From contig NC_134028.1 in the NCBI RefSeq assembly GCF_964204645.1, positions 13,005,263 to 13,069,262 of the forward strand: a DNA stretch of 64,000 bases, written 5' to 3'. Source of the stretch: Tubulanus polymorphus (lineage: Eukaryota > Animalia > Nemertea). This document shows positions 15,788 to 49,294 of this stretch, piece after piece. The notes beneath the pieces are model-generated. The model was not told where the DNA came from. It did not search any database and saw only the letters and a program-made list of their open reading frames with translations. The first letter of the stretch is position 1; every line of letters starts with the position of its first letter. Made by a program: the position numbers and the translations under genes.

Positions 15788-15847
15788 TAAAGGTTGAAAA
15801 TTGTATAAAATAATAGTAAATAAAAAAGGGGGTTTTAAGTATTAAGG

Positions 15848-26422: not shown

Positions 26423-26929
26423 TGTAACCGGCTGGTTGTTGTATCGGCAGGCTGGCTGGGGAACTAGCATTTACACCAGCGGTACAGGATTCCATCCATC
26501 AGGAACAACAAGGCAGTTAAACCTCATATGTACAATCTTTATTGCATCCCGGAATGAGAATGATTATCATAGCTTTACATAGTCTTTATATACAGAATCA
26601 TGAGTATAATGTGAGAACTAGGTGTCAGACAAGTTGTAGACATCAGGACTCACGAACAAACACCTAGTGACATGTTTGAGAGACATTAATTAATTATCGA
26701 TGAGCACTGACTATAGCTAATTATTGTGAAAACATATTGAGTAATGTCACATGTTGATTACGACCTTAAAGCACATATTGACACTATAGTCATAAGTTAT
26801 ATTATATTATTATTATTGTTATTATTATTATTATTAATATGTATTAGAGCTATGAAATGTTATGAACTGTTCGATATGACATTGTAGATCTATATGATTA
26901 TGAAATATGCAAATTATATCAGGGTGACA
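26423..26929 (-). repeat. 3' LTR (507 bp)
   Basis: TGTAAC...GTGACA; 26761-26929 matches 33024-33192. Confidence 0.85.
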
Positions 26930-27806
26930 GATGCCCCCTTGTCCAATTAAATTTGGTCGTCCAAATTTGCAGAAAACGCAGATACTATAAGTTCATCAAA
27001 ACTCCTTCCATCGCGAAAACATGAAAGATTGACTTTCACCGCGCGAAAATGTGCAAACGCTGGACAGTAACGGCCGGATTCTCAGTCATTCACGAAAGAG
27101 TCACATGTTGTAGTTATTTACGGACGATGCGATAATACGTTAACTGTGATTTTGAAGGATCTGCAGAGGATCCCCGAATTCTGGTTGGTTCTGCGACGAA
27201 CAGAAGTAGCGACGTGTTGTGTAGTAATAGCGTCCCGAAGATCAGTTGGTGATGCAAGTTGCAAGTAGTACGCATTTCTCTGTTTTTGAAGATCTTTCGA
27301 TTACTGACTGGAAATAACTTCGTGACACAATGATAGTAACATGCAACATCTGACATCAGAGCAGAGTTCAGGCAATGACACAACACAAATACAGTTACCC
27401 TTGTCAACCAAAAGAAAAAAAAACTGATCATTATCCAAAAAGTGGTCAGAAGTAAATAAAGAATAACCATAGTAATTGAGTAAAGATGACACCATCAGCA
27501 TAATTGAACTGTATTAACACCTATCATCGCAGTCTCAATTAATCCACGTTATATTATATCATTGATAAATTCATACCGTACTGTACACTTAGACAGATAT
27601 GTCTCGTATTAGATTTACAATGACGTTATTTGCGTGTTTTCTACGAAAAATTTCATGCACTCTACTTAAAATGACTAGTATATATTAATTGAACGTATGA
27701 ACTATCCGATCTTTGAACCGTTCAGGGCGTAAATAAACTGAAAATATACGTACGAGTAATAAGCTGATCAATTCATCGCTGATATCCATATGATATCCTG
27801 GAAAGC

Positions 27807-30800
27807 TTAAGAAAACCTACTGTAGCTACTACTGAGTTTCGAAGAAATTGATTTTAAACGAGAAGCGTACTGACTTTGTGTGCCAGGAGGTGGTTCATAC
27901 CAAGGCAGCCATGCAGGGGGAGCAAACCGCCCAAATAAAACATAGTATTCTAAGACTCCCTGGTCGTTGAAACGTGTTGATACGGCTCGTGCGGCAGTAG
28001 GTATAATCTTTTTGAGCTCGGTTTCGGTGGGAGGCCTTTCATTTTCCAAAATGACATGATATATACCCCATACATGTTCAAGACTTTCTCCGTGATCACT
28101 TACTTCATACCGATCTCGTTTTGATGCCCGGTACCATGGACTGTCATGGTAATACTTGACGAATAGCACATTATTTTGAAATTTGGTAGCAACAACCGTT
28201 TTTCCTGTAGGGCATGGACATAATGCTCGACGATTTCCCGTCCGAATAGCCTCTTCGATAGCGACATTACTTGAATCTGAACTACTCTTAAGGCTTTCCT
28301 CAATTGTATGATCTTGGTGAGTTTTCGATTGAGCTGAACAATATACACTATTTACATTCTCATTATTTGATGAGTCTTCATTAGACATCTGATTATCAAA
28401 TTCCTGGAAGCTATCATTAGTAACGTATACACCCTGTATTACGGTTCCATTTAATTTTCTTCTAGGTTTTTCACGTATCTCTACTTCACTACCCTGACAT
28501 CTATCTCTATTTGTGACTATAATATTTGCTACGTCATTCTCGTTATCATTTCGATCGTTTTGATTTCCTTGATTATTATCAGCATTGTCTGTAATGCGAT
28601 CAAAAAACTTACTTTTGCAAGGTTTCTTACGTTTTTCGCCTGATGCCGCATAGTTTTCGTGAAAGTGTCGAATTAGTTAATTTGGGATCCATTTTCCTAA
28701 TTCCCAAGAATTTTCACGATTCAAATCTGACTTCCATTTTACGCGATATTTACATAAACCGTTTTCTAGTTTGTACTGTAGAATTTTCTGAATATCTGAT
28801 TCATTGAAAGTCTCAGTAACGATCGGTCTATCTTTGTTATCGTCTGCCGAAATTTGAGTGTCAGTTGGAGTATCAGCTAGATTGCTAGGTTTAGATTTTA
28901 AGCGCCCATGAATCTCGTCGAATAATTCAGGGTTTTCCTCAGCTGTTGAACCATCCCATGCGACCTCTTCATAATTCGGACGCGATGAAGGATCTTTGTA
29001 TAACTTAAGACGGTTCCCATTGACATGCGATGGGAGTAAAACGTTATCAGAGATTCTTCGTAATTGATAAGCCCCTTTACTAGCTATTGACTGAATGAAA
29101 TAGGGACCTACGTATTTTTTACACAGTTTTGGTGATTTTCCTTTCTTAACTTTCATGACTTTTAGCCAAACGCGATCAGTAATCTGAAACTGAGGTTTTG
29201 ATGCCTTTTTATCGAACTGAGTTTTATACTTATTTTGAGCTCTTTTAATATTCTCGTTAGCGATATTTCCTGATATGACCAGCTGCCTTAATATATGTGA
29301 TAAGTATGCCTTATGATCAGTAGCTAACGAATGGCGTGGAATTAAAGCCGTGTCTATTGGTAGACGCATTTCTTGACCAAATAACATGTGGTAAGGGCTA
29401 AAACCTGAACCTTCAGTTGAGGGAACATGCCTATAACTCATCATTACACTTGGCATTAGTGTATCCCAATTAGTCTGATCCTGGTTACAATACGATCTAA
29501 GCGACTGCCAAATGTACTGGTTAGTTCTCTCGCAAACTGAGTTTGATTGAGGATGGTACGGAGCGGTGAAATGTTGTTTCACGTGAAACAATTCACAGAG
29601 AGCTCCAACTAACTTAGACATAAATGTTTTACCGCGATCAGAGACTAAAGAATGAGGCGCACCATACCGCGAAAATATCTCTTTAAAGAGAACCTTTGCT
29701 ACCTCTGTTGTTTCCTGAGTTTTGAGAGGAAAAGCCTCGGGCCATTTACTCCAGCTATCTACCACGAGTAGAATATGCTTATTACCATCAGGTGTCTCCG
29801 GAAGATTGCAAAGGAAGTCAATGTGCCATCTGGAGAATAAGCCTTCAATTGGTAATGGTTGTAAGGGTGTTGGATGACTATGATAATTCCGTTTGACCTG
29901 TTGGCAATTCTCACAAGTAGAAACATATTTCCCGCAATCTTCATACATGGAATCCCAATGATATTTATTACGCAAAACACCATAAAGACGATCTCGACCC
30001 TGGTGGCAACCCCCCACTAATGAATCGTGGTAAGCTTTCAATATTTTCGACCGTAATGACCTAGGAACTTCAAGAACTGGGATGACCTTCTCGCCTTTAT
30101 GGAATACCAGTAACTCTAGGCGTATACAAATAATATAACGTGCCATCGATAATACCATATTGGTCGGCCCTCCAACTGAGCTTTCGAAACAGTTTTTCAT
30201 CGTTGACAGCATATGATGGATCTAACTTATGTTCCAACATGTGACAAACTTCAGGGCAATTCCGCTGTAAGTGAGTCATATTAGCAGGTTTAATCAGTTC
30301 AATCTCCTTATAAGTATCAGGAGGTAACTCAGCCACCACGGGGCTAGTATAATCAAACACGACTTCATAAGACTGAGATCCATTTGTCATTGCTGTGAAA
30401 ACAGTTTCTTGTGAAGGATCATCAGGTCTATGAGGAGGAGGTTTATCATAATCTCATCTACTTAAACCGTCGCAATTGCCATTTTTCTTACCCGGTCGGT
30501 GTTCAACAGAAAAATTATATGCTTGAAGAGCCAATTCCCAACGTCCTATACGTTTATTTAGTCGGTTTTCATGAATATACGTTAAACTTTTGCTATCAGT
30601 AAACACAGTGAATTCATTTCCAATCAGGTAGGGATGAAAATTCTGAATTCCTTCAATCAAAGCTAATCCTTCCTTATCACTAATATGCCATTTCTTTTCG
30701 TTTACATGTAACGCGCGACCACCATATCCGATAACATGTTCTAAATTATTCTTTTTCTGAGACAAAACGTAACCGATAGCATAGTCCGAAGAGTCAACTG

Positions 30801-32716
30801 AGAGATAGAAACGAGAATTGAAATCAGGGAATATTGGATCACTAGTTAATTTCTGTTTAAGCGTATCAAAAGCTTTCTGACAATCAGGGGTCCATTTGAA
30901 CTTCACATCTTTACAGTTCAAAGCATTCAAGGGAGAAACTATTGATGCATAATTTTGAATGAATTTCCTGTAAAAGTTTGCCAACCCTAGAAAACTTTGT
31001 AATTGTTTGACATTGGACGGAACTGGAAAGCTGTTAACCTTTTCGATGTTCTTTTTACAAGTACGAAGACCCTCAGCAGATAACGTATAACCCAGGTATT
31101 CAATTTCTGGGACTGCAAATTCACACTTAGTCGGTTTGGCAGTTAGACCGGCTTGTTTAAGCTTCTCAAAAACATTCGATAAATGAACTAGGTGACTGTC
31201 AAAATCTTGAGAGAATATGATTAGATCATCAATGAAACACAATACATATTGCCAATTCAAATGACCTAAACATTTTGACATAAGCATCTGAAAAGCCATG
31301 GGACCATTCTTAATTCCCATCGGCATTCTTTTGAAGCACTTTTTGCCTTGCGTCGTTTGAAAAGCTGTTTTATGACGCGATTCTTCATGTAACGGTATCT
31401 GGTGAAATCCTGAATTAAGATCTAATTTACTAAATATCATGGGTTTAGCATCGGCTATCGTGTCAAATACATCATCAAAATGAGGTAGTGGAAATGATTG
31501 CGTTACGGTCTTCGAATTCAGTTTTCTAAAATCAATAGTAAACCTATACGTATTGTCTGGTTTTCTGACCAAAACCACAGAATTATTGAAAACAGAATCA
31601 GTTGGTTCAATGAGATCGGCATCGAACAGTTCGTTATCCAAGTCTTTTTCTACCTGTCTCAAGTGTGGACTTTTGCGATAAGGTCTTTGCATTATAGGGT
31701 CGTCATCAGTTGTTTCTATCTTATGGGTAACTAATGAAGTTTTGCCGATTTCCTGTAAGTTACTAGCAAATATTGACCTATTACATCCAATTAAATACAT
31801 TAATCTCTCTTTTTGTTCCAAAGTCAATCCTGAGTTTTCTGGAATTTTCATGCCTAAATTTTCCGCTATTTTAATTTTTTCATCATAATTTCGTGGTGTA
31901 TCAGTATCAACGGAGAAAATGTTTGCACTAGTATTGTCATCTGCGAAATCGAAACAATCATCGTTAGTTACATTGTATGCAAATCCAAGCACATAATCTT
32001 TTGAAATTTGAATTGGTTCATTAGTAGGATTCACAATAGTAGCGAAAATTTTACCGTCCGTGAATTTGCATAATGTTTTACCTCCACCTAAACATTTATT
32101 TAATAACTTGTGGTTGTATGGTCACAAAAACAACCAATGAACCTTCCGCCAACGTATCGACACTTATTTGAACTATTTGTTTAGTATTTGGTGAAATAAC
32201 TATCCTGTTAACCGTTTTAGCTTTATTTCTGTACAGCTCTTGTTTATTCCTAAGAATCTTTAATGGAATCGAAACATCTTTAAATTCAATTGTGCCTGAT
32301 GCAAGGTCAATGTTTACATTGTTTTCCTTCAAAAAATCCAGTCCCAGAATGACATCTGTATGTAGCCTATCGAATACATAAAACTTATGCGTTAATACAT
32401 GAGATTGAATGCAAATGGGTACATCAATTCTACCAATTACTGAATGTGCTTCCCCACAAACTCCTCTAATAATGTTTATACCCGAATGACTATATATGGG
32501 ATTTTTGATACATCTTTCGACCGTTGATCTAGCAATACATGAAATTGATGCACCTGTATCGACTAATGCTCGTTGGGAGTGTTTATTAATATCAACGTTT
32601 ATGATATTCCGATTCAACCCTGAAACTAAGCTTATATCAACCGCATTGATATCAGGTACCCATAATCGAGATGCTTCTTTACGACAAACATCCTTACTAC
32701 AATGTATGCGCTTCAT
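27807..32716 (-). pseudogene. Gypsy pol: aspartic protease, RT, RNase H, integrase, chromodomain and long C-terminal extension; frameshifts and stops
   Basis: LVDTGAS; IDFRKLN, LDLNSGFHQI, FIDD; VDSS..AIG; HHCC zinc finger, HIDF, SDRG, ERTN, GPY; YRVKWK...NSWE. Confidence 0.93.
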
Positions 32717-33023
32717 CTTTTTGAATTGTATACCACGTAAGACAGAACAAAATGAAACTGATTATGAATAATGTATAGCTAGAAAAATACTTTGAATCGA
32801 ACAATCGAAACTTGAGATATATATCAAACTAATATATCAAACGGTAATGCTTCCAAACTCAAATAACTATAATTTCCTATACTCAATATCTGACCACTAA
32901 TTTGAGACAAAGATTCAATCACATTACCTATGGCTGACAACAAGTTACCATAATGCGTTGTATCCACCAAAACAGCAGCGATTTCGGCGATCAGCACGGT
33001 CTTGTCACAAGTGTAGTTGAATG

Positions 33024-33192
33024 CGATCTTAAAGCACATATTGACACTATAGTCATAAGTTATATTATATTATTATTATTGTTATTATTATCATTATTAA
33101 TATGTATTAGAGCTATGAAATGTTATGAACTGTTCGATATGACATTGTAGATCTATATGATTATGAAATATGCAAATTATATCAGGGTGACA
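33024..33192 (-). repeat. Partial 5' LTR
   Basis: Near-identical to 26761-26929. Confidence 0.85.
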
Positions 33193-33290
33193 CTATATAG
33201 CATACGGCAGTGGTTTTTTTTCTGCTGGCGCTTATATGCTCATCCTCCACGTAAGAGGACGCGTGAAAATAGCAAAAATGAGTCGATAGA

Positions 33291-33360
33291 AGTAATTGGG
33301 AAAGTGGACTTTCAGATCGGAGGACGAGAGGACGAGACACCATTCATCACCACAAGTAAT
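33291..33360 (+). repeat. Left terminal inverted repeat
   Basis: AGTAATTGGGAAAGTGG...CATCACCACAAGTAAT, inverse of 49931-49997. Confidence 0.93.
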
Positions 33361-33375
33361 TTTTTTTCCTAATAA

Positions 33376-36300
33376 ATGGGGGAGAATGAACACCAGCCAG
33401 AAAACAATAATGTTAATAAAAATCAATATTATTGCACATATTGTAAAAAATACGTTGATACATCTAATAAAACACGACATGAAAAAACTGCAAATCATAT
33501 AAAAAATGTAATAGATTTTGAATCTCCAGAAAATTCCAATGAAAGAAAAGAAAGATTAGAAAATATGAATGTGGATGAAATAAAATGTGAAGTTTGTAAT
33601 GAATTTATAGTAAAAAGGAATTATAATAGACATCTCGAATCACAAAAACACCATCAAAATTTGAGTAATAATGTTTTAGGAAAAGATTATTTTAGCGATA
33701 AACCTCAAAAAGTAAAAAAACCAAATTCAAAAACTAAATCCATTTCAAATAAACCTTACATGGAAAATGTTAGAAATTATATTGATTCACTAGAAATAAA
33801 AGATACAATTGAAATTTAGGAAACATTACATAGTAAAATTGGTCCTGCAGCTATTATATTTAGATTTTTTAAAGGTACAACAATAGGAGATTATAGTAAA
33901 TTTAATGAAATAATAGAAAAAATACTAGATTTGATAACAGATGTTGAATATCCAAAAATTAGTATCTCTGGGAAAGTAAGTTTTATAAAGTCAGAAGAAA
34001 AAATGGATTATAATATTCAAACACACTCTGAAGAAATAATTTCAAAACACAAATAAAAGAGAAGTTAGAAAAAATATTTAATGAATTTAAACGTCATATT
34101 GAAGAAAGATATTTTGAGGGTTCTGGCTTAACATTGAATGAAATAATATATTTAGATTTAAATGTTTATAATACAAAAAGAAATAAAACATCAAAAAGTA
34201 ATAAAATGTTTAAAAATGATTCAAACTTTACAACAGAAAAGGATATTAAAGCATTATCTCATATTAAATTACCATTTACCACAAAAGCAGTAATAAATAT
34301 TCAAAATGAAGATAATAAATGTTTTCTATGGTCAATTATTAGTTGCTTACATCCAACACAGGAAAATGTTTGTAGAATAACAGATTATCGGAAATATGAA
34401 ACATTATATAAAATTGATCAATATCCAGTAACTATAAAAATGATTCCTAAAATAGAAAAAGTTAATAATTTAAAAATAATTGTATTCGAATTAATGCAAT
34501 TACCAAAGACAAAAGGTGAAAATATTAAAGATTATACATTGGAAGCTTTATATTTAACAGAATATTATAATGATGAAAATGCTATAGATTTGTTATATTA
34601 CAAAAAATGAACATTATATGTGGTTAAAACAAATTGATTTATTCTTTAGAACAGAAAGTGATCATCATCATAAGATTTATCTATGTAGAAAATGTTTATC
34701 TAAATTTATGACTGAGAATACATTATTAAAACATAAAGAAGTATGTGATAATAAAGATTTTTGTAAATTAATAATGCCAACAGAAAAAGATTATAAATTG
34801 AAATTTACTAATCATAAATTTAAGAATATCGTTCCATTTGTAATTTATGGGGATTTTGAATCGTTGAAAAAAGAATTAACTGATCAAGATAGAAAAGAAA
34901 TATATAACAAAAAGCAATTATTAAAATCAATGGATAAAGGAAATGAATTAAATGAAGACACAATAAAAGACCCACCAATTATAAATACAATTAAAAAAGT
35001 TCATCAAAGAGCTGCTGCTTATGGAATTTATATAAAATCAAATTATCCTGAATTATATGAAAGTCAATATATTTCTTTTAGAGGTGAAGATGTAGTTAAT
35101 AATTTTTGTAACAAAATAATTGAATTAGAAAGTGATTTTGCAAAATTATTAAACAAAAATAAAAGAATAGTTATGACAAAAGAAGATGAAATTGATTTTA
35201 ATTATGCAACTCATTGTTGTTATTGTGAAAAACGTTTTTATTCATTTGATAAAAAAGTTAGAGATCATGATCATTTAAATTCAAAATATCGTGGAGCTGC
35301 TCATGAAGATTGTAATTTACAAGCTAAAAAAGTAAATTTCGTTCCAATATTATTTCATAATTTATCCGGCTATGATACCCATCTATTTATAAAACAATTA
35401 TCGGGAAAATTGGGCGCAATTAATCAAGAAATATAAGAATATAATGCTATGAATGGTGTAAATGTAAGAAAAAATGATTTTAAACTATTAGCTAAAACAT
35501 CTGAAAATTATATTTCATTTCAATTTGGTTGCATTAGATTTTTAGATTCTTATAGATTTCTAGCAAGTTCATTAGATAATTTATCAAAAATTTTAGTTGA
35601 TAATGATTTTGTTATAACTCGATATTATTATCCAAATGAACAAGATTTTAAATTATTGAGATATAAAGGTGCAATTCCTTATTCATTTTATAAAACACAC
35701 AATGATTTTAATGTAACAGAATTATTAAAAGATCAATTTTATGATCAATTAAAAGAGGAGTATGTGAAAGATGAAGTGTTTAATAGAACATTAAATATTT
35801 GGAACCATTTTAAGATGAAAAATCATGGTGAATTAGTTGATTTATATTTAAAATCAGATGTTATGATATTGGCTGACATATTTGAAAAATCTAGAGAAGT
35901 TAATTTGAATCATTTCAATGTTGATCCTTGTTATTGCTACTCTAGTCCTGGTTTAACCTGGCAATGTGGTTTAAAATATACAAATGTAGAATTAGATTTA
36001 TTAAAAGAACCAGATATGGTTTTATTATTTGAAAAATCAATTAGAGGTGGAATTAGTGGTGTTATGGGAGATAGGTATTTTAAAGCAAATGATGAATATA
36101 AATTATTATATATTGACGCCAATAATTTATATGGTTGGGCAATGATGCAACCTCAACCATATAAAAATTTTATATTAACAGAAGTTGAAAATGATGATAA
36201 AACTAATTGGGAAAGCGCAATTATGAGTTTAGAAGATGAAGCACCAATTGGTTATTTCTTTGTAGTTGATTTAGAATATCCTGAAAATATAAAGTTTAAA

Positions 36301-38434
36301 ACAAGAAACTTACCTTATTGCCAAGAACATTTAACTGTAGATGATAGTTATTTAAGTGAATACCAGAAGAAAATAAAACCGAAAGATCATGTTTTTACAG
36401 AAAAATTAATACTTACTCAAAATAATAAATACAATTATATTGTTCATTATAGAATGTTAAAATTTTATCTAAAACAAGGAATGAAATTAAAGAAAGTACA
36501 TAGATATATTGAATTTAATCAATCGAAGTGGTTAGAAAAATATATAGATTTCAATACTCAACAGAGAACCATATCAAAAACAGATTTCGAAAAAGATTTC
36601 TTCAAATTAATGAACAATAGTTTTTATGGTAAAACATGTGAAAATATTAGAAATAGAAATGATATTGAATTAGTAAATAATTCTGAAAGATTAAGACTCC
36701 TACAATCAAGTCCTAGACATTTAGGAAATAAAAGATTTGAAGATTATTAAACAGCAGTTAAATTAAAAAGAACGTCAATGAAATTTAATAAACCTATATT
36801 CATTGGTTCAACTGTTTTAGAAGTATCAAAATTATTAATGTATGATTTTTATTATAATGTTTTACAGCCACTTTTTGGGGAAAAGCATATTGAAATATTA
36901 TATTTTGATTCTGTAACAGCTGACACCCCAATATTATTAAAATGTAATGATAAAATATTGATATGAAGAATTTCAGAAATAATTCCAAAACAAAATGAAT
37001 GTTATATTTCATATGGTGAAAAAGAATTAATACAAATAAATGGATTAATGGATGTTTGGACAAGAAATGGATGGAAAAAATTAAAGAATATTATTAGGCA
37101 TAAAACAAATAAGAAAATCTATATAGAGTTAGAACTAAATTAGGGTTTGTTGATGTTACAGAAGACCATAGTTTAATTAAACGAAATGGTAATGAAATAA
37201 AACCAACTGATATAAAAATTGGAGATGAATTATTACATAAAAGATTTTTCTAAAGAATATGAATCATATGTCATTTGATGAAATTATTGATAATATTTAT
37301 AATATAGAACCCGAAACATTAGAAGAAAAAGAATATTTTATCAAAGGATTTTTCATGGGTGATGGTTCAGCAGGTTTGTATAATTATGTTAATCGCACTC
37401 AATATTGCTGGTATTTATGCAATCAAGATTTGAAATTATTAGAAAGAATAAAGAAATTCTGTGAAGAAGTTTATTCACATAAAACATTCAAAATCATAGA
37501 TATTATGAAATCATCGCAATGTTATAGAATACATGTGAATAATCCTAAAGATTTTGCTACAAAATATAATGACGAATTCTAGATCCATGCAATAGTTAAA
37601 AGTAATACTTCAACTAAAGAAAAGATAGTTCCAGATTATGTATTAAATTCAAAATATAATTTAAGAAAATGGTTCTTCATTGGATTCTATACTGCAGATG
37701 GTTCAAAAAAATATACGAGATCTCCAGTAATAACATTTGCGCAAAAAGGAAAAGTTTTTATATCAGGATTGAATATATTATGCAGTTCATTAGGATTTAA
37801 TATGAATATAGAATTAATTAAATCTAAACCAAATTGTTTTAATTTAAGGCATACAGAAAAAGATTTAACTGAAGAAGTTAAAGATTTATTTGAAATATAT
37901 AACCCATCAGATTATGTTTATGATTTATCAACTGAAGATGGTACATTTAACTGTGGATTTCCATTAATAGCAGTCAATACTGACGCCTACATACTAAAAA
38001 TCAAGACAAATGACATAACAAAAGACTTAAAAACATTAAAACATCATTTTGATCTTAGCAATTATCCCGAAGATCATGAACTATTTAGCAATGATAATAA
38101 AAAGATTCCTGGTAAGTTTAAAGATGAATTAGGGGGTGATAAAATGATTGAATTTGTTGGGATAAGAAGTAAAATGTATAGTTACAGAACAAAAGATCAT
38201 GAAGCTAAAAAGTTAAAAGGAATAACAAAACATGTGGTTGATAAACATATAGAATTTCAAGATTATATAAAGTGTTTATATAACTCAATTGTAATGAAAC
38301 ATAAAATGAATTGTTTAAGATCAGAAGATCACGAGATGTACATTAATGAAGTTGAAAAAACTAGTTTAAATCCATTTGATGATAAAAGACATATTTCAGA
38401 TGATGGTATAAAAACATTACCTTATGGTTATTAA
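33376..38434 (+). pseudogene. Protein-primed PolB with N-terminal zinc fingers, putative vOTU-like protease region, exonuclease with EndoVII insertion, and an intein in motif C
   Basis: NEDNKCFLW, YGDFES, RDHDH..YRGAAH..CNL, FHNLSGYD, FLDSYRF, LYLKSDV, IRGGIS, YIDANNLYG, KLMNNSFYGK, YFD[intein]TD, FDDKR; several stops and frameshifts. Confidence 0.94.
36910..37978 (+). mobile_element. Intein with LAGLIDADG homing endonuclease (~356 aa, decayed) in pPolB motif C
   Basis: Block A SVTADTPILL; block B VDVTEDHSL; blocks C/E IKGFFMGDG and FIGFYTADG; block F YVYDLSTEDGTF; C-terminal N followed by extein +1 Thr; absent from the homologous pPolB at ~700. Confidence 0.93.
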
Positions 38435-38524
38435 AATGGATCAATATCATCAAACTCGAAATCACTATTCCTTTCTTCTTTTTCATTTAATTGTTCTTGT
38501 ATAATTTGTTTAGGCTCTTCCATT

Positions 38525-39184
38525 TCATTCCATTTCAAATGGAATTATAATATCTATGTTTAAATAATTTACAATCTTATTTAAAAAGAATTCATAATTT
38601 ATTGAATCTGTTATTCTATTTTCCAAATAATACATTAATATTTGTTTAAATATTTTTTTTATATTTTCCATATCTTCTTCTGTTAATTTAGGTTTTTCAT
38701 AATAATCGTTAAATAATAAATATAAATACATTTTCTTCTGTTTTGTGTTAAATGTTGACGGAATAATTGTTTTTATAATATCTTTTTTAGTTATCTCACC
38801 ATTTTTATTTTCTATCATTTTCATTTTTTCAAGCCATTGCATATATTCCGGTGTATGATCTTCTATAGAAAATATTTTAAAAATTTCATCTAGATAATAT
38901 AATTTTGGATCTATGAGAAAATTTCTAGTTTTTTCTTCACCCCATAAATTCTTTTGCCATCCATAATCAACACAAAATAACACAGTACCTTCTTGTCTTA
39001 AGGTCACATAACTACATTGTGGACATTTTCGTTTATAATTTATTGTTAATAGATCTTCATTAAGCTCTTGGTATTTTCTTACGTTTTCTTTATGTTTTAT
39101 TGTTCTATTATGTAGATTTGAATTACTTGTTGTAATAATCAATTTACAATATTTACAATAATATGTTTTTCTTGTTAATTCATT
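38525..39184 (-). CDS. Zn-ribbon protein, possibly poxvirus late transcription factor VLTF3(A2)-like; 5' end damaged
   Basis: CPQC...CVDYG ribbon and C-terminal SINYEFFLNKIVNYL resembling the VLTF3 NFLNYxYVLYK motif (by eye only). Confidence 0.42.
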   Translation of the reverse strand, partial: NELTRKTYYCKYCKLIITTSNSNLHNRTIKHKENVRKYQELNEDLLTINYKRKCPQCSYVTLRQEGTVLFCVDYGWQKNLWGEEKTRNFLIDPKLYYLDEIFKIFSIEDHTPEYMQWLEKMKMIENKNGEITKKDIIKTIIPSTFNTKQKKMYLYLLFNDYYEKPKLTEEDMENIKKIFKQILMYYLENRITDSINYEFFLNKIVNYLNIDIIIPFEME

Positions 39185-39259
39185 ATATTATTTTTTAACT
39201 TTTCAACTGTTTCTTTATTATCTGGTAACGTTTTCTCATATTTTATTTTTTCTAATATA

Positions 39260-39685
39260 TTATTTTTTTCTTTCATTGAATTCAATTTCAAATTTATTAG
39301 AAATTTTATCTATATGTGCTTTACGAAATTGATGATTCTCCCAATCTTCTATATTTTCAGGGCTATATTTTATTCGACAAGGCTCGCAGAAATGATCTTT
39401 TATATTATCCTTGTCATAGAATAAGAAAGGTCTTTTCCAAATAATTTCAGGTTCAACTTCAACAGAATTACTATTACTTTCGTTACTATCAACATTAGCC
39501 ATTGCGCCATTAATTTTGCACTTCTCTGAGTGTTTTTTAACATAATTTCTTGAGAATAATTTATTAAATTTTGGACAGTTTAGTTTAGGGGGTTTATAAT
39601 TTTCTTCATGTTTTTTCATATGTCGAGCCATATTACTTTTTCTTAGAAGTTCACCACAAATTTCACATGCTATCTTCTCATCCAT
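39260..39685 (-). CDS. C2H2 zinc-finger protein (141 aa)
   Basis: CEIC...HMKKH and CEPC...H...H; TAAATG start. Confidence 0.75.
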   Translation of the reverse strand: MDEKIACEICGELLRKSNMARHMKKHEENYKPPKLNCPKFNKLFSRNYVKKHSEKCKINGAMANVDSNESNSNSVEVEPEIIWKRPFLFYDKDNIKDHFCEPCRIKYSPENIEDWENHQFRKAHIDKISNKFEIEFNERKK

Positions 39686-39769
39686 TTATTTAGGAAAAAT
39701 TTTATTAAAATTAATTTTTAGTGATGAGCGGTAATTTTTATGTTATATGTTTATTTTATGTTATAAATA

Positions 39770-40531
39770 ATGGTAGAATTAAAAGAATACAGAATATTTG
39801 TTGATTCAAGAAAACTTACAAATTATAAATCTCATAATTTACTAGTACAATTAGATAGAGAATTTAAGAATTGTGTTGATTTAAAATTAGTAAATATAAG
39901 TTTATGTAATTCTTTTTATAATATATCGGATAAAACTATTGAAGATAATACTGTTTTAATTCATATTAGAAATGTAGATAAATGGTTTCATCTAATTTTA
40001 AAACCAGGATTATATAATTTAGAAACATTAGCTCAAGAAATTAATCGTAGAGCACGGTTGAAAATTAGAAGAGATGATAAATTTTTAATTAGATTTATAA
40101 AAAGTGATAGCACAAACAAAATTAAAATAAAGTTATATGATGAAAGTCAACATGCATTTATGGTAAAAAAAAACCTATAGCTAAACTGTTAGGAATTGTA
40201 CCAGATACTGTTACAGGAAACGTAGATGGTAATTCAAATATAATACCTTTTACACACTTTTATTATTTATTGCAATTTAATCGAGCCTACAAAAACTTTC
40301 GAAGCAACTAAAGAAACAATTTGTAGTTCTAGTATACTAAATATTTTACCGCTAAAAAATGTTAAACAATTTGGAACTCAAATAAATTATAATTTAACAG
40401 AATGTGATTTTAAACCTTGCATTCCTCAATTTAATAATTTTAAATTAGAAATAAGAAATCATAATGGATATTTAATTGATTTGAATAACTTTCCTGTGAT
40501 ATATGAATTAGTTATAAGATGTAGAGAGTAA
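39770..40531 (+). pseudogene. Putative minor capsid protein (penton), copy C, frameshifted in homopolymer runs
   Basis: MVELKEYRIFVDSR...; homologous to 1638-2401. Confidence 0.68.
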
Positions 40532-40547
40532 TTTTTTCATTATATAA

Positions 40548-40898
40548 ATGAATATAACTGTTGGGCCGAGCATATGTTTTGGATTTGATTTTAAACGTGA
40601 GAAAGAAATGAAATTTAACGTTAATGATGTAATTACACATATCAAAAATATTACATTTTCTAATGAAACAACATTTGAGTATGAAACAACAATAGATAAA
40701 GAAACTTTGAATGTAGAAAAGATTACTAATTTAATTAGAGAATCTTTAAGATTTTATGAATTAGATGAAGATTTTATCATCGATGATATTAAAAATATAA
40801 TAATTGAAATATATACAAATGAAACTAGTAATGAAATAAATGTTGAATTAATCATAAATAAAAAAATATTTTGATGATAGTAATTTTTTGATAAATAA
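40548..40898 (+). pseudogene. Polinton hypothetical gene (113-aa family), frameshifted at 3' end
   Basis: MNITVGPSICFGFDFK. Confidence 0.7.
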
Positions 40899-41144
40899 AT
40901 GAGTGATAATAAGTGGATAATAACTGGATTATATAATGGCGCCTTACTATCAGTTGGAACTGTTGATTATTCAATGGTATTAAAAAAAGTATCAAAAATG
41001 GGAAGTGTTAATGTTGATAGATTTGATATAAATGATATTTTAAAATTAACATTAGCAGTTACTTTATCTAATTTAACTATTGTTTATTTAGAAAAACAAA
41101 AATATATTCCTCCCATACAAATGCGTAATTATTTTACTAAATAA
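40899..41144 (+). CDS. Small hydrophobic Polinton protein (stop lost, 81 aa)
   Basis: Homolog of 6470-6691. Confidence 0.72.
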   Translation: MSDNKWIITGLYNGALLSVGTVDYSMVLKKVSKMGSVNVDRFDINDILKLTLAVTLSNLTIVYLEKQKYIPPIQMRNYFTK

Positions 41145-41567
41145 ATGGCTTCTGCAGTTATAACTATTATAGGATCGGCACTTGTTAACGCTTTAGCATT
41201 TACTGGTGGCGGTTATTTATTTAAACATATTGATAAAAATGGATCATTAACAGAACAAAAAAGACATAACTTAGCATTAGAGAAATATAATAAAGCAGCA
41301 GAAGAATATAGAGAAAAGAGGCAAAACTATATGGATTATATTAACAAAGAATTATATGATCAGAAGATTTCACATAGAGATTTTCAATCAGTCGATGATG
41401 CAATGAGTTTATATAACGCGGTAACCAATAAAGAAAAATTTCATCTATACAAACCTAAATTATCAGATTATTATACCCCAAGTAATGAACAGAAGAAATA
41501 TGAAATAATTTGGATTTTAGGGGGAACAGTTATTGTTATATTTGTCGCTTATAAGTTTACTAATTAG
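41145..41567 (+). CDS. Polinton membrane-associated protein (140 aa)
   Basis: Homolog of 6716-7138. Confidence 0.78.
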   Translation: MASAVITIIGSALVNALAFTGGGYLFKHIDKNGSLTEQKRHNLALEKYNKAAEEYREKRQNYMDYINKELYDQKISHRDFQSVDDAMSLYNAVTNKEKFHLYKPKLSDYYTPSNEQKKYEIIWILGGTVIVIFVAYKFTN

Positions 41568-41586
41568 TAATTTTTTTGCTAAATAA

Positions 41587-42012
41587 ATGGATGATAATAT
41601 TGATATTATTCCTCATGATATAAATAAAACTAAATTAAAAACATATTTAGAAAAGCAAATATTAGAATTTGAAAGTGACTTAAAAGTTAAAAAGAAAAAA
41701 TATTTAAAATCTAAAATTATATATTATTTGATTATAAGTGGTTCGGTTACAATTAGTTCTGTAATAACATTTCTGGCAATATTCAGTCCATTAACACCTT
41801 TAGCTATATCAATTGGTGTATTAGGATTAAGTTCAAGTGTTTTAACTGGTTTAAGTTCAAAATTAAATATAAAAAGTAATAAAGAAAAAATTAAAACTGA
41901 TATAAAAGAAATTAATGAATTAAAGAATACACTAGATTATATAATAAGTTTAAATGGTCATATAACAGTTGAAGAACAAGATAAATTATTAAAAGAATTA
42001 ATAAATTATTAA
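41587..42012 (+). CDS. Polinton two-TM protein (141 aa)
   Basis: Homolog of 7159-7584. Confidence 0.75.
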   Translation: MDDNIDIIPHDINKTKLKTYLEKQILEFESDLKVKKKKYLKSKIIYYLIISGSVTISSVITFLAIFSPLTPLAISIGVLGLSSSVLTGLSSKLNIKSNKEKIKTDIKEINELKNTLDYIISLNGHITVEEQDKLLKELINY

Positions 42013-42028
42013 TTTTTTTATTATATAA

Positions 42029-43347
42029 ATGGTAGATAGTTTTCCAAAAGCTTTCCAATATAATAAATCAATTAAATATAATATTCCAGCAATAGATTTA
42101 AATAAAGATATTACATATAGAAATGAAGTTTTAGATTCATTAATTGATTTATATATTTATGTTACTGAAAGTAATAATTTTCATGTAAAGATGGAAAATA
42201 TATTTCATGTGTATACAATTAATTTTAAAAATTTAAATGAGGCAAAACAATGGTTATTAAAATCTAATATGAAGTATTGGCAGAACCAATTGAATTTTGC
42301 TGTTTATTGCGCAACAACAGGATGTGGAATTAGTTGGAATGATCATTTAAACTAACCAAGTTTACCATTGATGTTATCTCTTTTTAGATTTCATACATAT
42401 TTTCAAATAAAAATTAATATTAGATGAATTAGAATGTCCTTTACCAGGTTCAAAATATTTTAAAGAATTGAATAATAATATTAATTTTTCTAAGTTTTAT
42501 AAAATATGTAATGAATTTAATATTAATTCAAATAAAGATTTTAGAGCAAAAATTGGAACAATGGGTGGATTAGGAATATTATATACTAAAGAATTTGGAA
42601 AAATAATGACAAATTCAGATATAAGAACACTAAATTGGAATGAATTACCAAAATATTATAATAATATACAACAACAAAACAATAATGGTTGGGTTAATTT
42701 CATTTTAGAAAACAGTGAAGGTTTTACTCAAGCTGGTATACAAAGAATCTATTAGAACTTATTTAATTTGTATTTTAGGCGCGCAAGTTGAAACAAGATC
42801 ACCAATAATTGGAAACGATAACACTTCATTCGATGCGCAGAAACAATTTAAAGTATTATTTGAAGATTCAATTCATAATGATAAAAATAGATCGATTCCA
42901 GAAAACATTGTAAGATATCAAAATTATTTAGATAAATCACATATTAGATTAAATTATTGTATAGGCCCTAATCTATTAATTATTTCTAATGATTTAGTAT
43001 TAAAGATGGGAAACATAATTGGTTACAATAATCTAATTAAAACTGCAACAATAAATAATTCATTTGGATTGAATGATATAAATAAAAAGATTATTACTGC
43101 TCCAAAATTAATGGAAGGTGAAAAAAATAAAAAACACATTCAATCAACAGAAACTAAAACTAATAATATTAAATTAAATAATGATTCTAAAATAAAAGAT
43201 TACAATACATCAGAAAATATAAAAACTGATAATATTCAACATGATATAATTAAAAATGATAATGATAATAAATTCCATGAAAATACTAAATTAGCTTTAA
43301 CTTGTATAGGAATTCTTATAGGAGGAATATTATATTTTAAATTTTAA
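42029..43347 (+). pseudogene. Conserved Polinton hypothetical protein with C-terminal TM, fragmented
   Basis: Three ORF pieces collinear with the copies at 7601 and 11035. Confidence 0.75.
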
Positions 43348-43363
43348 TTTTTTTATTATATTA

Positions 43364-44823
43364 ATGGATGTAAAAGGTGGAGAAGATATTGGAATAGATC
43401 CTTTTGATGAACCTTACATAACTGATGAACAACCACCTGATTTTAGTGAAACAAGTTTTAAAGGCGGTAATGAGCCAGGACGTAATTCTAATTTAAATAC
43501 ACCTGAATTTATTGATAAAACTCTTTCAAAGATAAGTATTGAAAATGAAGTACCAGAATTAACAGAATAAGAATACAAATATAATGAAATTGCTAGTGAT
43601 TTTAAACCAATATTAAAAAGATCTGGTTTCAATATACCAAATAAAGGTATGGATAAATTAGTAAAAGATTTAAAATTTTTTAGATGGTAATTATTATTGG
43701 AAATTGAAAGGCGACTATTATTTTAAGATTTCAAATCTTAAAAGTAACGATAAAATAATAACACAATCAACTTTTAATTTATTTAAACCAGATAGAATTA
43801 AGAAAATCATTAATGATGTTATAACTGATGTTACACAAGAAGAAAGAGATGATAATATAAAAGAATTTAAAAAAAGAAATGATTATTTTTTTGAAGATAA
43901 TTAATGAAAATTTAAGACAAAAAAAAATTCTTAAAGAAGTTATTAATTCCAAAACTAGTAAACCTAATTCAAGAGAAGTTCAAACTGAAAAACTTTTACC
44001 GAATGGATTAATTGATGCAACAGATCAACAATTAGAAGATTTAAATAATATATTTTCTGTTGAAGCAATTAGAGAAATTAAAAGTATAAGACTTGCATCT
44101 GATAAAATTGCGCATGATAAAAGTATAAGAGATATTGAAATTAGAAATTTAGAAAAAGAATTAACTGATAAAAATAAAGAAATAGAACAATTAAAGTCTG
44201 ATTTAGATCATCAAGTAATTGATGAAATAGAATATAGGCAAAAAGAATAACGTTTAGAAAAAGAAAAAGATGATTTAGAATATAACATAGAATTACAAAA
44301 AGAAGAAATTAAATTATTGTTAAAATCATATGATTATAATATAAATAGATTAAAAATAACTTTTAAAGATTTGTTGATAAAACCAGATTCTAAAATATCA
44401 TTGAAAGATAGAATAAAGTTATTATTTAAATTAGAAGGAATAACAATTCTTTCAATTCTAACAGCTGTAACTATGTTATTTACAACAATTGGTTTAGCAA
44501 TATCAAATTCTTTAAAATCTACTCCTACTCCAAATAAACCAGATAAACCGCCGAATGATGATAATTCTATACAAGATAAAGTTAAAGATGGTTTGAAAAA
44601 ATTAGCAAAATATTTATGGGAACTATCTAAAAAATCTGCTGCAGCTTTACCAGGAATTATTGCGTCAACTGTTGGTTTTATATTGAAATCTGCTGGGAAT
44701 ATTCTTAACTTTGCTGCTGAACATATTATTTTATTTCTAATTACAGTTGTAAGTGCTATTATTTTTGGGTTAGTGAATATGATATCAAAAAGATATCAAG
44801 AAAAAATAATAAAAAATAAATAA
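43364..44823 (+). pseudogene. Large acidic/coiled-coil protein with C-terminal hydrophobic segments, fragmented
   Basis: ORF pieces at 43364, 43704, 43879 and 44317; homolog at 12173-13623. Confidence 0.7.
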
Positions 44824-44843
44824 TTAATTTTTTTGTTAAATAA

Positions 44844-46091
44844 ATGAGTGGGAGTTATATAAGTCCTTCTAAGATTTCTAGAATATCTAATGCTATTAAA
44901 GCAGAAAGATCTCATCATATAATTACTCATAATCCTTCAAATATTAATCCCGATGAAACTTTATATGTTAGAATTCCTAGATTAACACAAAATACTTTTT
45001 ATGTTCCAAATAGTATTTATTTATCAGCTGATATAAAAGTAACTGGTCATGATAATAATTATGTTGTTGATAATGTTGGGAGATATTTGATTAAAAAATT
45101 AACTATAAAGATTGGTCCAGAAACAGTTTTCTCATTAGATGATTATAATTTATTTATGCATTATAAAGATTTATGGTTAACTAAAGAAAATAGAAATAAT
45201 ATGATATTTCAGGGTATTCAATCGGAAAACCATAATAAATTAAGATCAGGAGCTAATGACGCAAAAGTAACTCGTGCCACAGATAATTTGATTAAAAAGA
45301 TTTATGGAAGCAAATATAAAATTCCATTAGACTTTGAATTGAAAAATAATAATGCACCTTTATATAAATACGCAATTCAAGAAGATATTATATTTGAGAT
45401 AACATTTGCTCCTGTAAATGAAATTGTATTATCTAGCGTTGTTAAAGATATGGGTTATAAATTATCGAATATATGTTTAGAATATGACACAGTAACTAAT
45501 GAAAATATTGCTAGCACAATTCAAACTCAATACAATCAAGGATTTTCATTATTATATGATTATATTGATAAATTTAAAACTGTAACTATTAATGCAAATG
45601 ATGAAATAATTAATGAGAATATTAACTTCCCAAGAAGATCTATTAAAGGTATATTCATATTTTTTACCATTGCAACATATACTAATGGCGCAATAAAGGT
45701 AGATAATTATTATAATCCTGAAATAACAAAAATAGAAATAACTATCGAAGGAATAGCAAATAAAATATTTTGTCAAGGAATGAGAATGATAGATCAGTGG
45801 CCAGAAATTAGAAAACATTTTATGAATGAAAAAGTAAAATCATTTGAAAATTGTAATATTAATCAAATTGATTATTATACCGGCAATAAATATGCATTAT
45901 GGTTAGATTTTAGAACAACAGAGGATGATTCATTACATGGTTCTGGAAAAAAATTACAAAACACTAAAGATGGAATACAATTATTCATGACAAAGAAAAA
46001 AGGAAGCCTAAATTTCAAAATGCATATTCATATTATATCTGACGCACAATTAAATATTGTAAATTCTCAATTAGATAGTATTCAATATTAG
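44844..46091 (+). CDS. Polinton major capsid protein (415 aa, open frame)
   Basis: As for 13644; complete ORF with TAAATG start. Confidence 0.82.
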   Translation: MSGSYISPSKISRISNAIKAERSHHIITHNPSNINPDETLYVRIPRLTQNTFYVPNSIYLSADIKVTGHDNNYVVDNVGRYLIKKLTIKIGPETVFSLDDYNLFMHYKDLWLTKENRNNMIFQGIQSENHNKLRSGANDAKVTRATDNLIKKIYGSKYKIPLDFELKNNNAPLYKYAIQEDIIFEITFAPVNEIVLSSVVKDMGYKLSNICLEYDTVTNENIASTIQTQYNQGFSLLYDYIDKFKTVTINANDEIINENINFPRRSIKGIFIFFTIATYTNGAIKVDNYYNPEITKIEITIEGIANKIFCQGMRMIDQWPEIRKHFMNEKVKSFENCNINQIDYYTGNKYALWLDFRTTEDDSLHGSGKKLQNTKDGIQLFMTKKKGSLNFKMHIHIISDAQLNIVNSQLDSIQY

Positions 46092-46121
46092 AAATATAAA
46101 GTTAAAATTAAGGATATATAA

Positions 46122-47249
46122 ATGGGCGGTAAAAAAACTCCTAATACTAAAGAACAATATTTAAGAAATTTATATTACAACCCTGAGAGTTCGGTTGCTT
46201 ATTCTTCTACCAAAAATATATGGCGTCAAGTAAAACAAGATAAATTAGATAGATAATCCCACAAAATTTAGTTAAATATATAGATATAAATGAATTTATG
46301 TTAGAACAACCAACATACACAACACATAAAAAAATTGTTAGAAAATATAAAACTCGTAAAACTATGGTAAGTTATGTAGATCAACAGTGGCAAGGAGATT
46401 TAATTGATATGAAAAATGTTAAGAAAGATAATGATGATTATTGGTGGTTATTGAATATAATTGATATTTTTAGTCGTTATGTATGGAGCTTCCCAATTTA
46501 TAGAAAAGATGCTGTACAAACATCAAATGTTTTGAGAAAATTTCTTTCGGATGATAAACTAAAACCAGAAAAAAATACAATTTGATGATGGAAAAGAATT
46601 TGATAATTCACTTGTTCATGAACTCTTAGACAATCATAATATTAAATATTTTTCAACAAAATCGGATAAAAAAGCGGCAGTTGTTGAACGATTTAATAGA
46701 ACATTAAGAACAAGAATGTGGAAATATTTTACAGCAAATAATACTTTTAATTGGATTGATGTTTTACCAAAATTGATAGAAGGATATAATAATTCTTATC
46801 ATTCTTCTATTGGAATGAAACCTATTGATGCTAGAAAACCTGAAAATGCTGAAATTGTTTGGAATAATTTATATGGAGCATTTCTTGTAAATGATTTTGG
46901 TGAACCTAAATTTAAAGTTGGTCAAAATGTTAGAATTTCTAAGTATAAAAAGATATTTGACAAGGGATACGATCGAAATTTTACTAGAGAAATATATAAA
47001 ATAAAAAAGGTAATAACAACAAAACCATATGTCTATAAATTAGAAGATTTAGATGGTGAAGAAGTTGATGGCTACTTTTATGAAGAAGAATTGAGTTTAA
47101 CTACTGAAAATCTAGAACAAGAATATAAAATTGAAAAAGTATTAAAAACAAAAACTATTAATAGAAAAAAATATTCTTTAGTTAAATGGGTTGGATGGCC
47201 AGATAAATTCAATGAATGGATATTGTCAAGTAAAATTAAAAATATATAA
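46122..47249 (+). pseudogene. Retroviral-like integrase with C-terminal chromodomain, frameshifted
   Basis: WQGDLIDM, IDIFSRY, FDDGKEF, VERFNRTL, LVKWVGWPDKFNEW. Confidence 0.92.
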
Positions 47250-47858
47250 ATGAATAAGGAATTATTTATATTTGAACCTCATAATATGTTAATTTCTGGC
47301 GTAACAAATTGTGGAAAAACTTATTTCATATTAAATTTATTAGAAACTGTTTATAAAAACTATTTTGATAATATAGTATTATTTTGCCCAACATATGAAT
47401 TTAATCAAACTTATGATAGAAATATTACTAGAAATAATAAATTTATTATATTAGATCCTAAAACAGTAAAAGAAAATTTAGATAATTGTATTAAAATAGC
47501 AATTGATATTTATAAAGGATCAAATACATTATTTATCATAGATGATTGCGCAAATTTACATGATTCAAAAGTTAGAGAAAGTGAGTTATGCTATATAGCT
47601 TTTTCTGGCAGACATTTTGGGATAACAACTTGGATTTTGAATCAAAAATATAATTCAATTGTTAAAGACTTTAGAGAAAACATTAGATTTCTAGTTTTAT
47701 TCTACAATAAAGATAGAAAATCGATGAAAAATGCACTTGAGGAAAATGATATTATTCCACATGATTTACATAATGAATATATGGATAAGTTGAAAAATAT
47801 TAAAAGATCAAAATTACTATTTAGATTACAACACCCATTTAAATATGAATTTATTTAA
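47250..47858 (+). CDS. A32/FtsK-like DNA packaging ATPase
   Basis: GVTNCGKT, FIIDDC, SGRH. Confidence 0.9.
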   Translation: MNKELFIFEPHNMLISGVTNCGKTYFILNLLETVYKNYFDNIVLFCPTYEFNQTYDRNITRNNKFIILDPKTVKENLDNCIKIAIDIYKGSNTLFIIDDCANLHDSKVRESELCYIAFSGRHFGITTWILNQKYNSIVKDFRENIRFLVLFYNKDRKSMKNALEENDIIPHDLHNEYMDKLKNIKRSKLLFRLQHPFKYEFI

Positions 47859-47860
47859 AT

Positions 47861-48228
47861 TCAACTGGCTTGTTAATCTAGTATATTTTTAGTTACATTC
47901 TAGTTGAATTCTAGTTATTAGTAGTTGGAACAAAAATCAACTAGATTTAACAATATTTTAACTAGCTTGTTAATCTAGTTTAATTCTAGTTACATTCTAG
48001 TTGAATTCTAGTTATTAGTAGTTGGAACAAAAATCAACTATATTTAACAATATGTTAACTACCTTGTTAATCTAGTATATTTTTAGTTACATTCTAGTTG
48101 AATTCTAGTTATTAGTAGTTGGAACAAAAATCAACTAGATTCAACAAGAAATAAATAAAAACAACAATATTTCAACTAGCTTGTTAATCTAGTTGAATTC
48201 TAGTTACATTCTAGTTGAATTCTAGTTG
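47861..48228. repeat. 97-bp tandem repeat (~3.5 copies) rich in CTAG and GAATTC palindromes
   Basis: GGAAC anchor at 47927, 48024 and 48121. Confidence 0.9.
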
Positions 48229-48259
48229 CAACATCACAACTAATTTTTTTGTTATATAA

Positions 48260-48792
48260 ATGGTAGGTGAAAAGAAAATAAAATCTAAAAATGGTGATGT
48301 TCCAATTTAAAAACTTTAGATGATTTAGGAATAACAGAAAACAAATTAATTCCAGATGATGGTGCTTTAAATAATGTTACAACAAATAATAATTATGAAT
48401 ATTATCTTTATTGTAAACATCAATTAGAAATATTAATAGCATCTGGAAAATGTAAAAATTTTATCGGTAAAAATTTAACTTATAATGAATTAGATACAAT
48501 GAAATCAGATGAAATTATTAGATTATTTAAGATTTATGAAGCCGCGAGAACAGCTAGAATTAATGACATTAAGAAAATGCAGTAAAAGGTTATAGTAAAT
48601 TATGTAATTATATACTACCAATTGAAGATGAAAATAGATTATATGCTGATTTAAAAAATGATTATTTAGTTATGACTGAATTAAATAAATGGATTGGATA
48701 TTTATCATTTCAATTAGGTGGATTTATGACATTATTATCAACTGGGGTTATAACATTTTCAAATATTGAAAGTAAAAATATTTCTATAATAA
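48260..48792 (+). pseudogene. Homolog of the 200-aa gene at 18182-18784, frameshifted
   Basis: YEYYLYCKHQLEILIASGK...DLKNDYLVMTEL. Confidence 0.72.
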
Positions 48793-49155: not shown

Positions 49156-49294
49156 AAAAAAAGCAAAAAAAATAATTTTTTTTAATTAATTGAATATCTC
49201 TACTTTTGTCTATCTATGCGGAGCAATTAAATTGTCCAGATAAGTCATTTCGGATTCTAAATATTCATTATTTTTATTAATTTTTTTTTTAAAT

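Follow-up and report, generated by a model that had tools for sequence, protein, structure and literature searches.

A broken Pol-c intein in the protein-primed DNA polymerase of a Polinton, likely from an animal genome

Background

Serine-start inteins at the Pol-c site, within the catalytic motif C of family B DNA polymerases (PolB), have been described in the RNA-primed enzymes of giant viruses and archaea (PMC549080). In nuclear genomes, surveys place inteins in fungi, amoebae, choanoflagellates, algae and other protists (PMC5784728, PMC7765530), and the available text of the survey covering 2377 nuclear genome entries gives no animal hosts (PMC5784728). Endogenised viral PolB inteins have been reported on nuclear scaffolds of Klebsormidium, Tetrabaena and Hondaea, together with nuclear inteins of Anaeramoeba (PMC10710043), in a paper whose main text has no occurrence of Polinton, Maverick, animal or metazoa. 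The nuclease inserts described in the protein-primed PolBs (pPolBs) of Polintons are of the HNH and VSR types (Jeong et al., bioRxiv 10.1101/2023.08.22.554363), in a text with no occurrence of intein, LAGLIDADG or homing, while one sentence of Krupovic et al. 2024 (PMC11161782) speculates that homing endonuclease inserts of Polinton pPolBs come from intein invasions; in their available portions, PMC12220804 and PMC5718144 mention inteins in general terms only. Here we analyse a stretch of 64,000 nucleotides (the window) from contig NC_134028.1, positions 13,005,263 to 13,069,262 of the forward strand, of assembly GCF_964204645.1, filed under Tubulanus polymorphus, in which a broken intein of the Pol-c allele interrupts the polymerase of an integrated Polinton.

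An initial reading made without database searches (the sequence-only reading) had proposed an intein at this place, at the site used by Ser-start inteins of giant-virus and archaeal PolBs, with which PMC549080 agrees. It had also held that inteins are not known from animal nuclear genes, and the available text of the surveys lists none (PMC5784728, PMC7765530). As to its further statement that inteins are not a known feature of Polinton pPolBs, the full-text literature yielded no paper describing a Hint-LAGLIDADG intein, whether of a pPolB or of an animal genome; Repbase, InBase, subscription journals and supplements were not covered.

Results and discussion

An insert at the Pol-c site of a Polinton polymerase

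The insert occupies positions 36910-37978 (1069 bp) and splits the polymerase as YFD|SVT...AVN|TDAY, between the Asp and the Thr of motif C: IEILYFD is encoded at 36889-36909, SVTADTP starts at 36910, LIAVN ends at 37978 and TDAY follows. Its limits, which are those originally proposed, can be checked against two empty alleles. The window itself holds a natural control, an intein-less sister pPolB (433-1239, forward strand) with the empty site YFD|TDSY between 708 and 709, which shows 78-79% DNA identity to the intein-bearing gene on both flanks. The intein-less allele of another family aligns by tblastn from 332 to 1042 with 34612-36912 and from 1041 to 1190 with 37976-38425. Since both bracket the insert, it is exactly bounded and not a product of chance, and it is confirmed as a genuine member of the Pol-c intein allele.

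The upstream part of the host protein (N-extein, 34242-36909, forward strand, with a start possibly further upstream) is a pPolB of Beta/group-1 type with an EndoVII-like insert (PF03175, E 1.3e-15; PF02945, E 0.006), and the C-extein follows at 37979-38434 on the same strand. The whole is 38-43% identical to intact Beta-type pPolBs, and would be classed as a divergent Beta (group 1) type by the definitions of Starrett et al. (PMC8502044).

The insert has the organisation of a class-1-type intein with a LAGLIDADG endonuclease, read on the forward strand throughout. Block A (SVTADTP, 36910-36930) opens with Ser1, the start type common to all pPolB relatives and to the PolB intein of ChoanoV1, and block B (DVTEDHSL, with its TxxH) lies at 37152-37175. 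The two LAGLIDADG helices, GFFMGDG (37346-37366) and GFYTADG (37682-37702), both retain their acidic residue, and among five insert pieces searched against Pfam the C-terminal one, with the second helix, matches LAGLIDADG_3 (PF14528, E 3.8e-8). Block F (37913-37948, VYD) and block G, with the terminal Asn, a penultimate Val and the +1 Thr, complete the series at 37913-37981. These blocks and helices all stand where the sequence-only reading had put them, and the class 1 residues, checked against the feature list in PMC7765530, are all present (N-terminal nucleophile, TxxH, block F Asp, terminal Asn and +1 Thr). A spliceosomal intron was considered and rejected, as the ends are TC..AT and the insert encodes a protein family.

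The copy in the window is damaged. The frame of the intein is interrupted by two stops (36964 and 37580) and two frameshifts (near 37120 and at 37245-37257), as had been noticed, and a third stop, at 37248, is crossed if the second frameshift sits at its right-hand limit. The host gene is itself broken by one frameshift near 34605 and by stops at 35434 and 36748. The window intein therefore has no open frame continuous with the host protein, whereas the frame is intact in the relatives P0004, P0005, P0006, P0042 and others. When X is placed at the breaks, its match to a profile built from natural relatives reaches 446 bits and extends over all 350 profile positions.

Related inteins and predicted fold

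A search with the C-terminal piece returned three proteins of similar length and seven longer ones, and a profile built from 12 natural sequences, with 7992 candidates scored, found 1668 longer proteins. Among the best 120 of these 1668, 111 carry PF00136 (RNA-primed PolBs, including that of Mimiviridae ChoanoV1) and nine are Polinton-type pPolBs; in nearly all the matches listed, the intein lies between the D and the T of motif C. The window intein is 65-69% identical to those of two partial pPolB relatives, 41-47% to those of full ones, and up to 40% to those of RNA-primed PolBs. Intact copies are present in the protein databases, in several Beta-type Polinton families and in one Alpha-type pPolB (P0004). 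All 22 full-length pPolB inteins checked, many of them near-copies of each other, retain Ser1, the block B His, the block F Asp, the terminal Asn, the +1 Thr and both LAGLIDADG acids; the penultimate residue in the pPolB relatives is His or Lys, with Lys also in the ChoanoV1 PolB intein.

The natural relative P0013 (44% identical to the window intein) is predicted to have a Hint fold with an inserted endonuclease, like archaeal homing inteins. Its AF2 model (pLDDT 87.6) has as best PDB matches the homing inteins TliVMA (E 8.6e-18), PI-PkoII, PI-PfuI and PI-SceI, and PI-PkoII is also recovered by the profile from sequence (E 1.3e-14). The best named viral matches of the model (BFVD) are giant-virus PolBs, and among the 50 BFVD matches listed, several of them unnamed, there is no named Polinton or adintovirus.

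A scan for a degenerate C-terminal motif yielded one viral contig, from a giant virus, three metagenome contigs and no prokaryote genome contig. The metagenome matches are a Beta Polinton pPolB with the intein (L003) and two RNA-primed PolBs, one of which is the contig of the viral match. Viral contigs searched with P0002 and P0004 gave no related loci.

Several other carriers were met in these searches. The P0002 cluster (55 members) includes many decaying intein copies on long ENA contigs, a second genomic family with amplification. An intein-bearing Polinton pPolB (P0043) is filed on a 2.5-kb contig under Candidatus Thiodiazotropha, in a metagenome-assembled genome labelled 'ex Ctena', Ctena being a lucinid clam; this contig is likely misbinned host DNA. 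P0008 and P0028 (residues 744-1100) have the same Pol-c intein, 36-43% identical to the Polinton ones, in a Pol-delta-like polymerase (zf-C4pol, E 1.2e-4) that may be cellular or come from a nuclear-replicating virus. P0030 (residues 762-1468) has two related inteins, two residues apart, within one YGDTD motif of an RNA-primed PolB. Finally, the giant-virus-type PolB Pol-c inteins at L001:855-5963 and L004:3-1676, which stand outside the trees described below, have degenerate endonuclease helices and share a C-terminal NCGFPL motif that is otherwise typical of the Polinton clade.

Origin of the intein

In a tree of 42 rows, 14 pPolB inteins form one group (SH-aLRT 99) which, with the root placed on six motif-B-site inteins, nests among the Pol-c inteins of RNA-primed PolBs. 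Holding the 28 RNA-primed inteins together is rejected (p-AU 0.029), and a FastTree of 242 rows gives the same picture, the path from its root to the Polinton clade passing four supported nodes (96-97). Inteins of Polintons and of giant-virus-type polymerases are 34-45% identical, at exteins that are <30% identical or not alignable. These comparisons are best read, though without proof, as one acquisition from a polymerase of giant-virus type, and a direction from large DNA virus to Polinton has moderate support. The sequence-only reading had supposed such a crossing, and that part is supported by the nesting and by the topology test. This locus is not an isolated case: the transfer appears to be old and common to many families of Polintons, and there are signs that the intein later moved from one family to another. 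A kinship with giant-virus PolB inteins is likewise supported.

In the FastTree the apparent sister of the Polinton intein clade is P0224 (support 94), whose C-extein is a divergent PF00136 polymerase with a possible likeness to the iridovirus or pithovirus types.

Filled and empty alleles

Filled and empty alleles coexist in three families, namely the P0042 cluster, the P0164/P0167 pair and the pair in the window. The P0042 cluster has 136 members, of which 15 were listed and the 12 long ones aligned (three fragments were omitted), on contigs that are assumed to come from one species. Seven of the 12 are filled and five empty, two of the latter being exactly 346 residues shorter. The seven filled full-length open reading frames (1537-1539 residues) are open, with inteins 95-99.7% identical. 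The N-exteins of empty and filled members are 98-99.5% identical in four of the five empty ones and 94-95% in the fifth, and the fixed differences between the two kinds are concentrated in two places that flank the site, residues 1035-1040 and 1390-1431. Such a site-centred tract is the pattern that would be expected of homing with co-conversion of the flanks, or of empty alleles that have survived by resisting cleavage. In the second family, P0167 is the exactly empty counterpart of P0164 (571/577 and 169/169).

An extein tree of 18 rows needs four changes in the presence or absence of the intein, at least three of them forced by well-supported branches. The exteins of the Alpha-type P0004 are at most 29% identical to Beta types, its intein is 42-46% identical to theirs and falls inside the Polinton intein clade, so that this intein appears to have moved horizontally across polymerase classes. 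Among Beta families the identities of inteins (41-58%) and of exteins (35-58%) are similar, which implies that long co-inheritance also took place. Altogether, the indirect signs are consistent with ongoing homing.

Sequencing reads and copy number

Six of the 12 read runs listed hold part of the stretch; they come from three studies, none is recorded as RNA, and four were aligned. In study P4 (X7), raw whole-genome shotgun reads amounting to ~12% of the run, depth ranges over ~134-241 in the four bins of the insert, compared with 345-437 for neighbouring bins of the polymerase. Where the window has its two frameshifts, 175/222 and 176/212 of the P4 reads (~80%) differ from it and lack the frameshifts, which must therefore belong to a minority of copies, and the window intein to a multi-copy family. 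In run X2 the depth of rare joints is close to 50, compared with sums of 7,530-16,720 over the two places; as summed depths are not copy numbers, we infer for the element family only a range of tens to hundreds of copies. No joint skipping the whole insert is among the 15 shown of 101 at 85% likeness, a level at which the empty sister in the window, only ~79% alike, would not map.

An assembly chimera at the insert, a concern raised with the original proposal, was rejected: the reads of one study cover the insert continuously, a contig of another (P1, X1) covers 36639-37043 and bridges the upstream junction, and unrelated database proteins share the same layout.

The Polinton and its surroundings

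The polymerase belongs to a complete integrated Polinton of 16,707 bp (33291-49997, forward strand), which supports the kind of host that had been proposed. It is bounded by terminal inverted repeats (TIRs), the left one starting with AGT (33291-33360, forward strand) and the right one ending with ACT (49931-49997, reverse strand), with 40 of the first 42 bases of the left matching the right, and by a 6-bp target-site duplication (TSD), GATAGA, at 33285-33290 and 49998-50003 (both forward strand), a 6-bp match by chance having a probability of ~6e-4. These features fit the Polinton range of TIRs, a TSD of 5-8 bp and a length of 13-25 kb, except that its TIR, at ~70 bp, is below the 100-1500 bp quoted (Jeong et al., bioRxiv 10.1101/2023.08.22.554363). 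On the forward strand, the element also encodes a likely major capsid protein (44844-46091; weak match to PF16903, Capsid_N, E 0.013), a likely retroviral-type integrase with a chromodomain, in two frames (46253-47249; weak matches, Chromo E 5e-4 and rve_3 E 0.038), and an A32-like packaging ATPase (47250-47858; PF04665, E 5.5e-13). Among those open reading frames of the element that were scanned, which were not all of them, none matched an adenovirus-type maturation protease. Tandem repeats of 97 bp follow the ATPase gene (47860-48267).

A second, rearranged Polinton region occupies positions 1-23200 and has an intein-less pPolB end; it holds duplicated gene blocks (85-98% alike) and an inverted partial copy, and its genes for capsid, integrase and ATPase show 75-88% likeness to their counterparts in the intein-bearing element. 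A Penelope-like retroelement (2704-6363), with a reverse transcriptase and GIY-YIG domain in a 721-residue open frame, sits in this first Polinton and looks very recent, with perfect 1085-bp inverted arms, and open reading frames suggest two further degenerate Penelope/GIY-YIG-type elements at 58437-61991. Upstream of the intein-bearing element lies a Gypsy-type long terminal repeat retroelement (26753-33192) with reverse transcriptase, RNase H, integrase and a chromo-like domain; the repeats of this retroelement, 97.7% alike over 177 bp, stop ~100 bp ahead of the Polinton. About 7 kb outside the element, an exon on the minus strand (57114-57302), with a pyrimidine-rich AG acceptor, may correspond to the last exon of animal SEC31A. 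Searches of this exon in Pfam and the PDB gave no match, and Atlas only a weak lead, to the SRA1 family (0.78).

Weighing of the explanations

We consider it probable, from the comparisons above, that the window holds a broken copy of a Pol-c homing intein of Polinton polymerases whose intact copies are predicted to splice and are likely spread by their endonuclease, with a likely single origin of giant-virus type and a likely residence in animal germlines. By the chemistry of class 1 inteins (PMC7765530), an N-O shift at Ser1 would form an ester, the +1 Thr would attack it, the Asn would cyclise, and the exteins would be ligated with restoration of the catalytic YxDTDx motif. Because the site splits this motif, the polymerase would work only after splicing, and intact elements would need splicing to replicate. 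The endonuclease would cut empty Polinton alleles, and filled alleles would serve as the repair template wherever related Polintons meet in the same nucleus; a giant virus could have been the donor during a co-infection, and one later jump could have taken place between the Alpha and Beta classes. A bolder version would have a live, splicing lineage of homing inteins in animal germlines that entered Polintons once from a giant virus, still converts empty alleles and crossed between Alpha and Beta polymerases. We regard this version as evenly poised between true and false.

Several observations weigh against this reading. The window copy is unable to make a protein and has Val in place of the penultimate His, a residue that is common, though not universal, in inteins. 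None of its five pieces matches Pfam Intein_splicing, and most relatives remain under the cut-off of that model; the Hint domain that had been expected is thus missed in the window pieces, while P0042 (1537 residues) passes the cut-off (37.7 vs 35.8) and P0013 has the predicted intein fold. The relatives are a sample of best matches to a profile seeded partly with giant-virus inteins, and of the best 150 matches in a library of 50% representatives none was a pPolB, BLAST assigning 129 to RNA-primed PolBs and leaving 21 unassigned. The intein trees draw on the same best matches, without archaeal Pol-c inteins, and they are quick trees (IQ-TREE) rather than careful searches. The count of changes in the extein tree does not separate gain from loss. 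Finally, no conversion tract is found in the P0164/P0167 pair, and no flank conversion is visible between the filled and empty copies of the window.

It could also be the case that the intein splices but no longer homes, having been gained once, long ago, and inherited with Beta Polintons with several precise losses, the tracts then being ordinary recombination between lineages. The similar divergence of inteins and exteins in Beta families is what co-inheritance predicts, the change count is neutral between gain and loss, and the flanks of P0164 and P0167 are identical. However, both LAGLIDADG acids are kept in every one of the 22 pPolB inteins checked, in the P0042 cluster the recombination tract has the site at its centre, and for the Alpha-type P0004 a horizontal gain of the intein is required. 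We find this explanation improbable.

The intein-bearing Polinton could, on the other hand, be real but belong to a protist or other non-animal eukaryote, or to a chimeric or contaminant contig. Consistent with this, the SEC31-like exon has only the low lead given above, and viral polymerases with inteins have been described from nuclear scaffolds of algae and labyrinthulids (PMC10710043). Against it stand the clean TIR and 6-bp TSD, set among flanking Gypsy and Penelope elements, the presence of the same family at high depth in two studies under one species label, and the resemblance of the pPolB to Beta adintoviruses, with Atlas neighbours of P0042 that are eukaryotic, most commonly Arthropoda or Mollusca (leads only). 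One relative is, moreover, filed in the symbiont bin 'ex Ctena', and the exon does appear to us like that of animal SEC31A. The host of the element is likely an animal genome, and a non-animal or chimeric source seems somewhat less probable still than an intein that has ceased to home.

A non-splicing passenger, with filled copies that have dead polymerases and are amplified in trans by intein-less helper elements, is the least credible of all, for even though each of the three families in which both kinds could be seen has empty alleles beside filled ones, and non-autonomous Polintons are plausible, splicing residues are conserved across families just 41-58% identical and the seven filled P0042 frames are open, with nearly identical inteins.

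Conclusions

An intein family in the multi-copy Polintons of likely animal genomes would change two statements at once, that no inteins are listed from animals and that none is described in protein-primed polymerases. It would give a molecular record of Polintons and giant viruses sharing cells and exchanging DNA, and would demonstrate that inteins are able to pass between polymerases of the RNA-primed and the protein-primed kind, whose flanks are barely alignable. With filled and empty alleles that are 98-99% alike, homing inside a eukaryotic nucleus becomes open to direct test, and the Polinton clade is an untapped source of Ser-start inteins and of meganucleases, for which activity in animal cells would be a necessity. 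If the bolder version were true, this lineage would be the first intein gene drive to be active in the nuclear DNA of metazoans, and its target would be a motif common to host polymerases.

Comparison with known systems

The Pol-c (position III) inteins of Mimivirus and archaeal RNA-primed PolBs occupy the same place (YGD|TDS there, YxD|TDx here) and likewise have Ser1, a terminal Asn, a +1 Thr and a LAGLIDADG domain (PMC549080), and Polinton inteins are 38-45% identical to that of ChoanoV1 PolB. Unlike in those cases, the host is the distantly related protein-primed polymerase of an integrating Polinton, and the intein is carried by multi-copy elements, likely in the nuclear DNA of animals. 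The closest precedent for virus-borne entry of inteins into eukaryotic nuclear DNA is given by Klebsormidium, Tetrabaena and Hondaea (PMC10710043); there and in Anaeramoeba the carriers are, in the cases described, giant-virus-like polymerases or protist genes, whereas here the carrier is a self-amplifying element with filled and empty alleles.

The HNH and VSR inserts also place an endonuclease domain inside a pPolB, but they are permanent domains for which no splicing domain is described, while here there are a Hint domain, splice junctions, exact empty alleles and a position in the catalytic motif. The element resembles the Beta adintoviruses or group-1 Polintons of Starrett et al. 2021 (PMC8502044) in its divergent PolB, ATPase, TIRs and TSD and in its likely integrase and capsid; the text of that paper has no occurrence of intein, homing, LAGLIDADG or splicing. 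The Hint fold is shared with the Hedgehog/Hint domains of animals (PMC5784728, PMC7765530), which are described as host autoprocessing domains with neither endonuclease nor empty allele, in contrast to the likely mobile insert found here. The locus is thus to be seen as a known Pol-c intein allele in a new host class, the protein-primed polymerases of integrating Polintons, in likely animal genomes.

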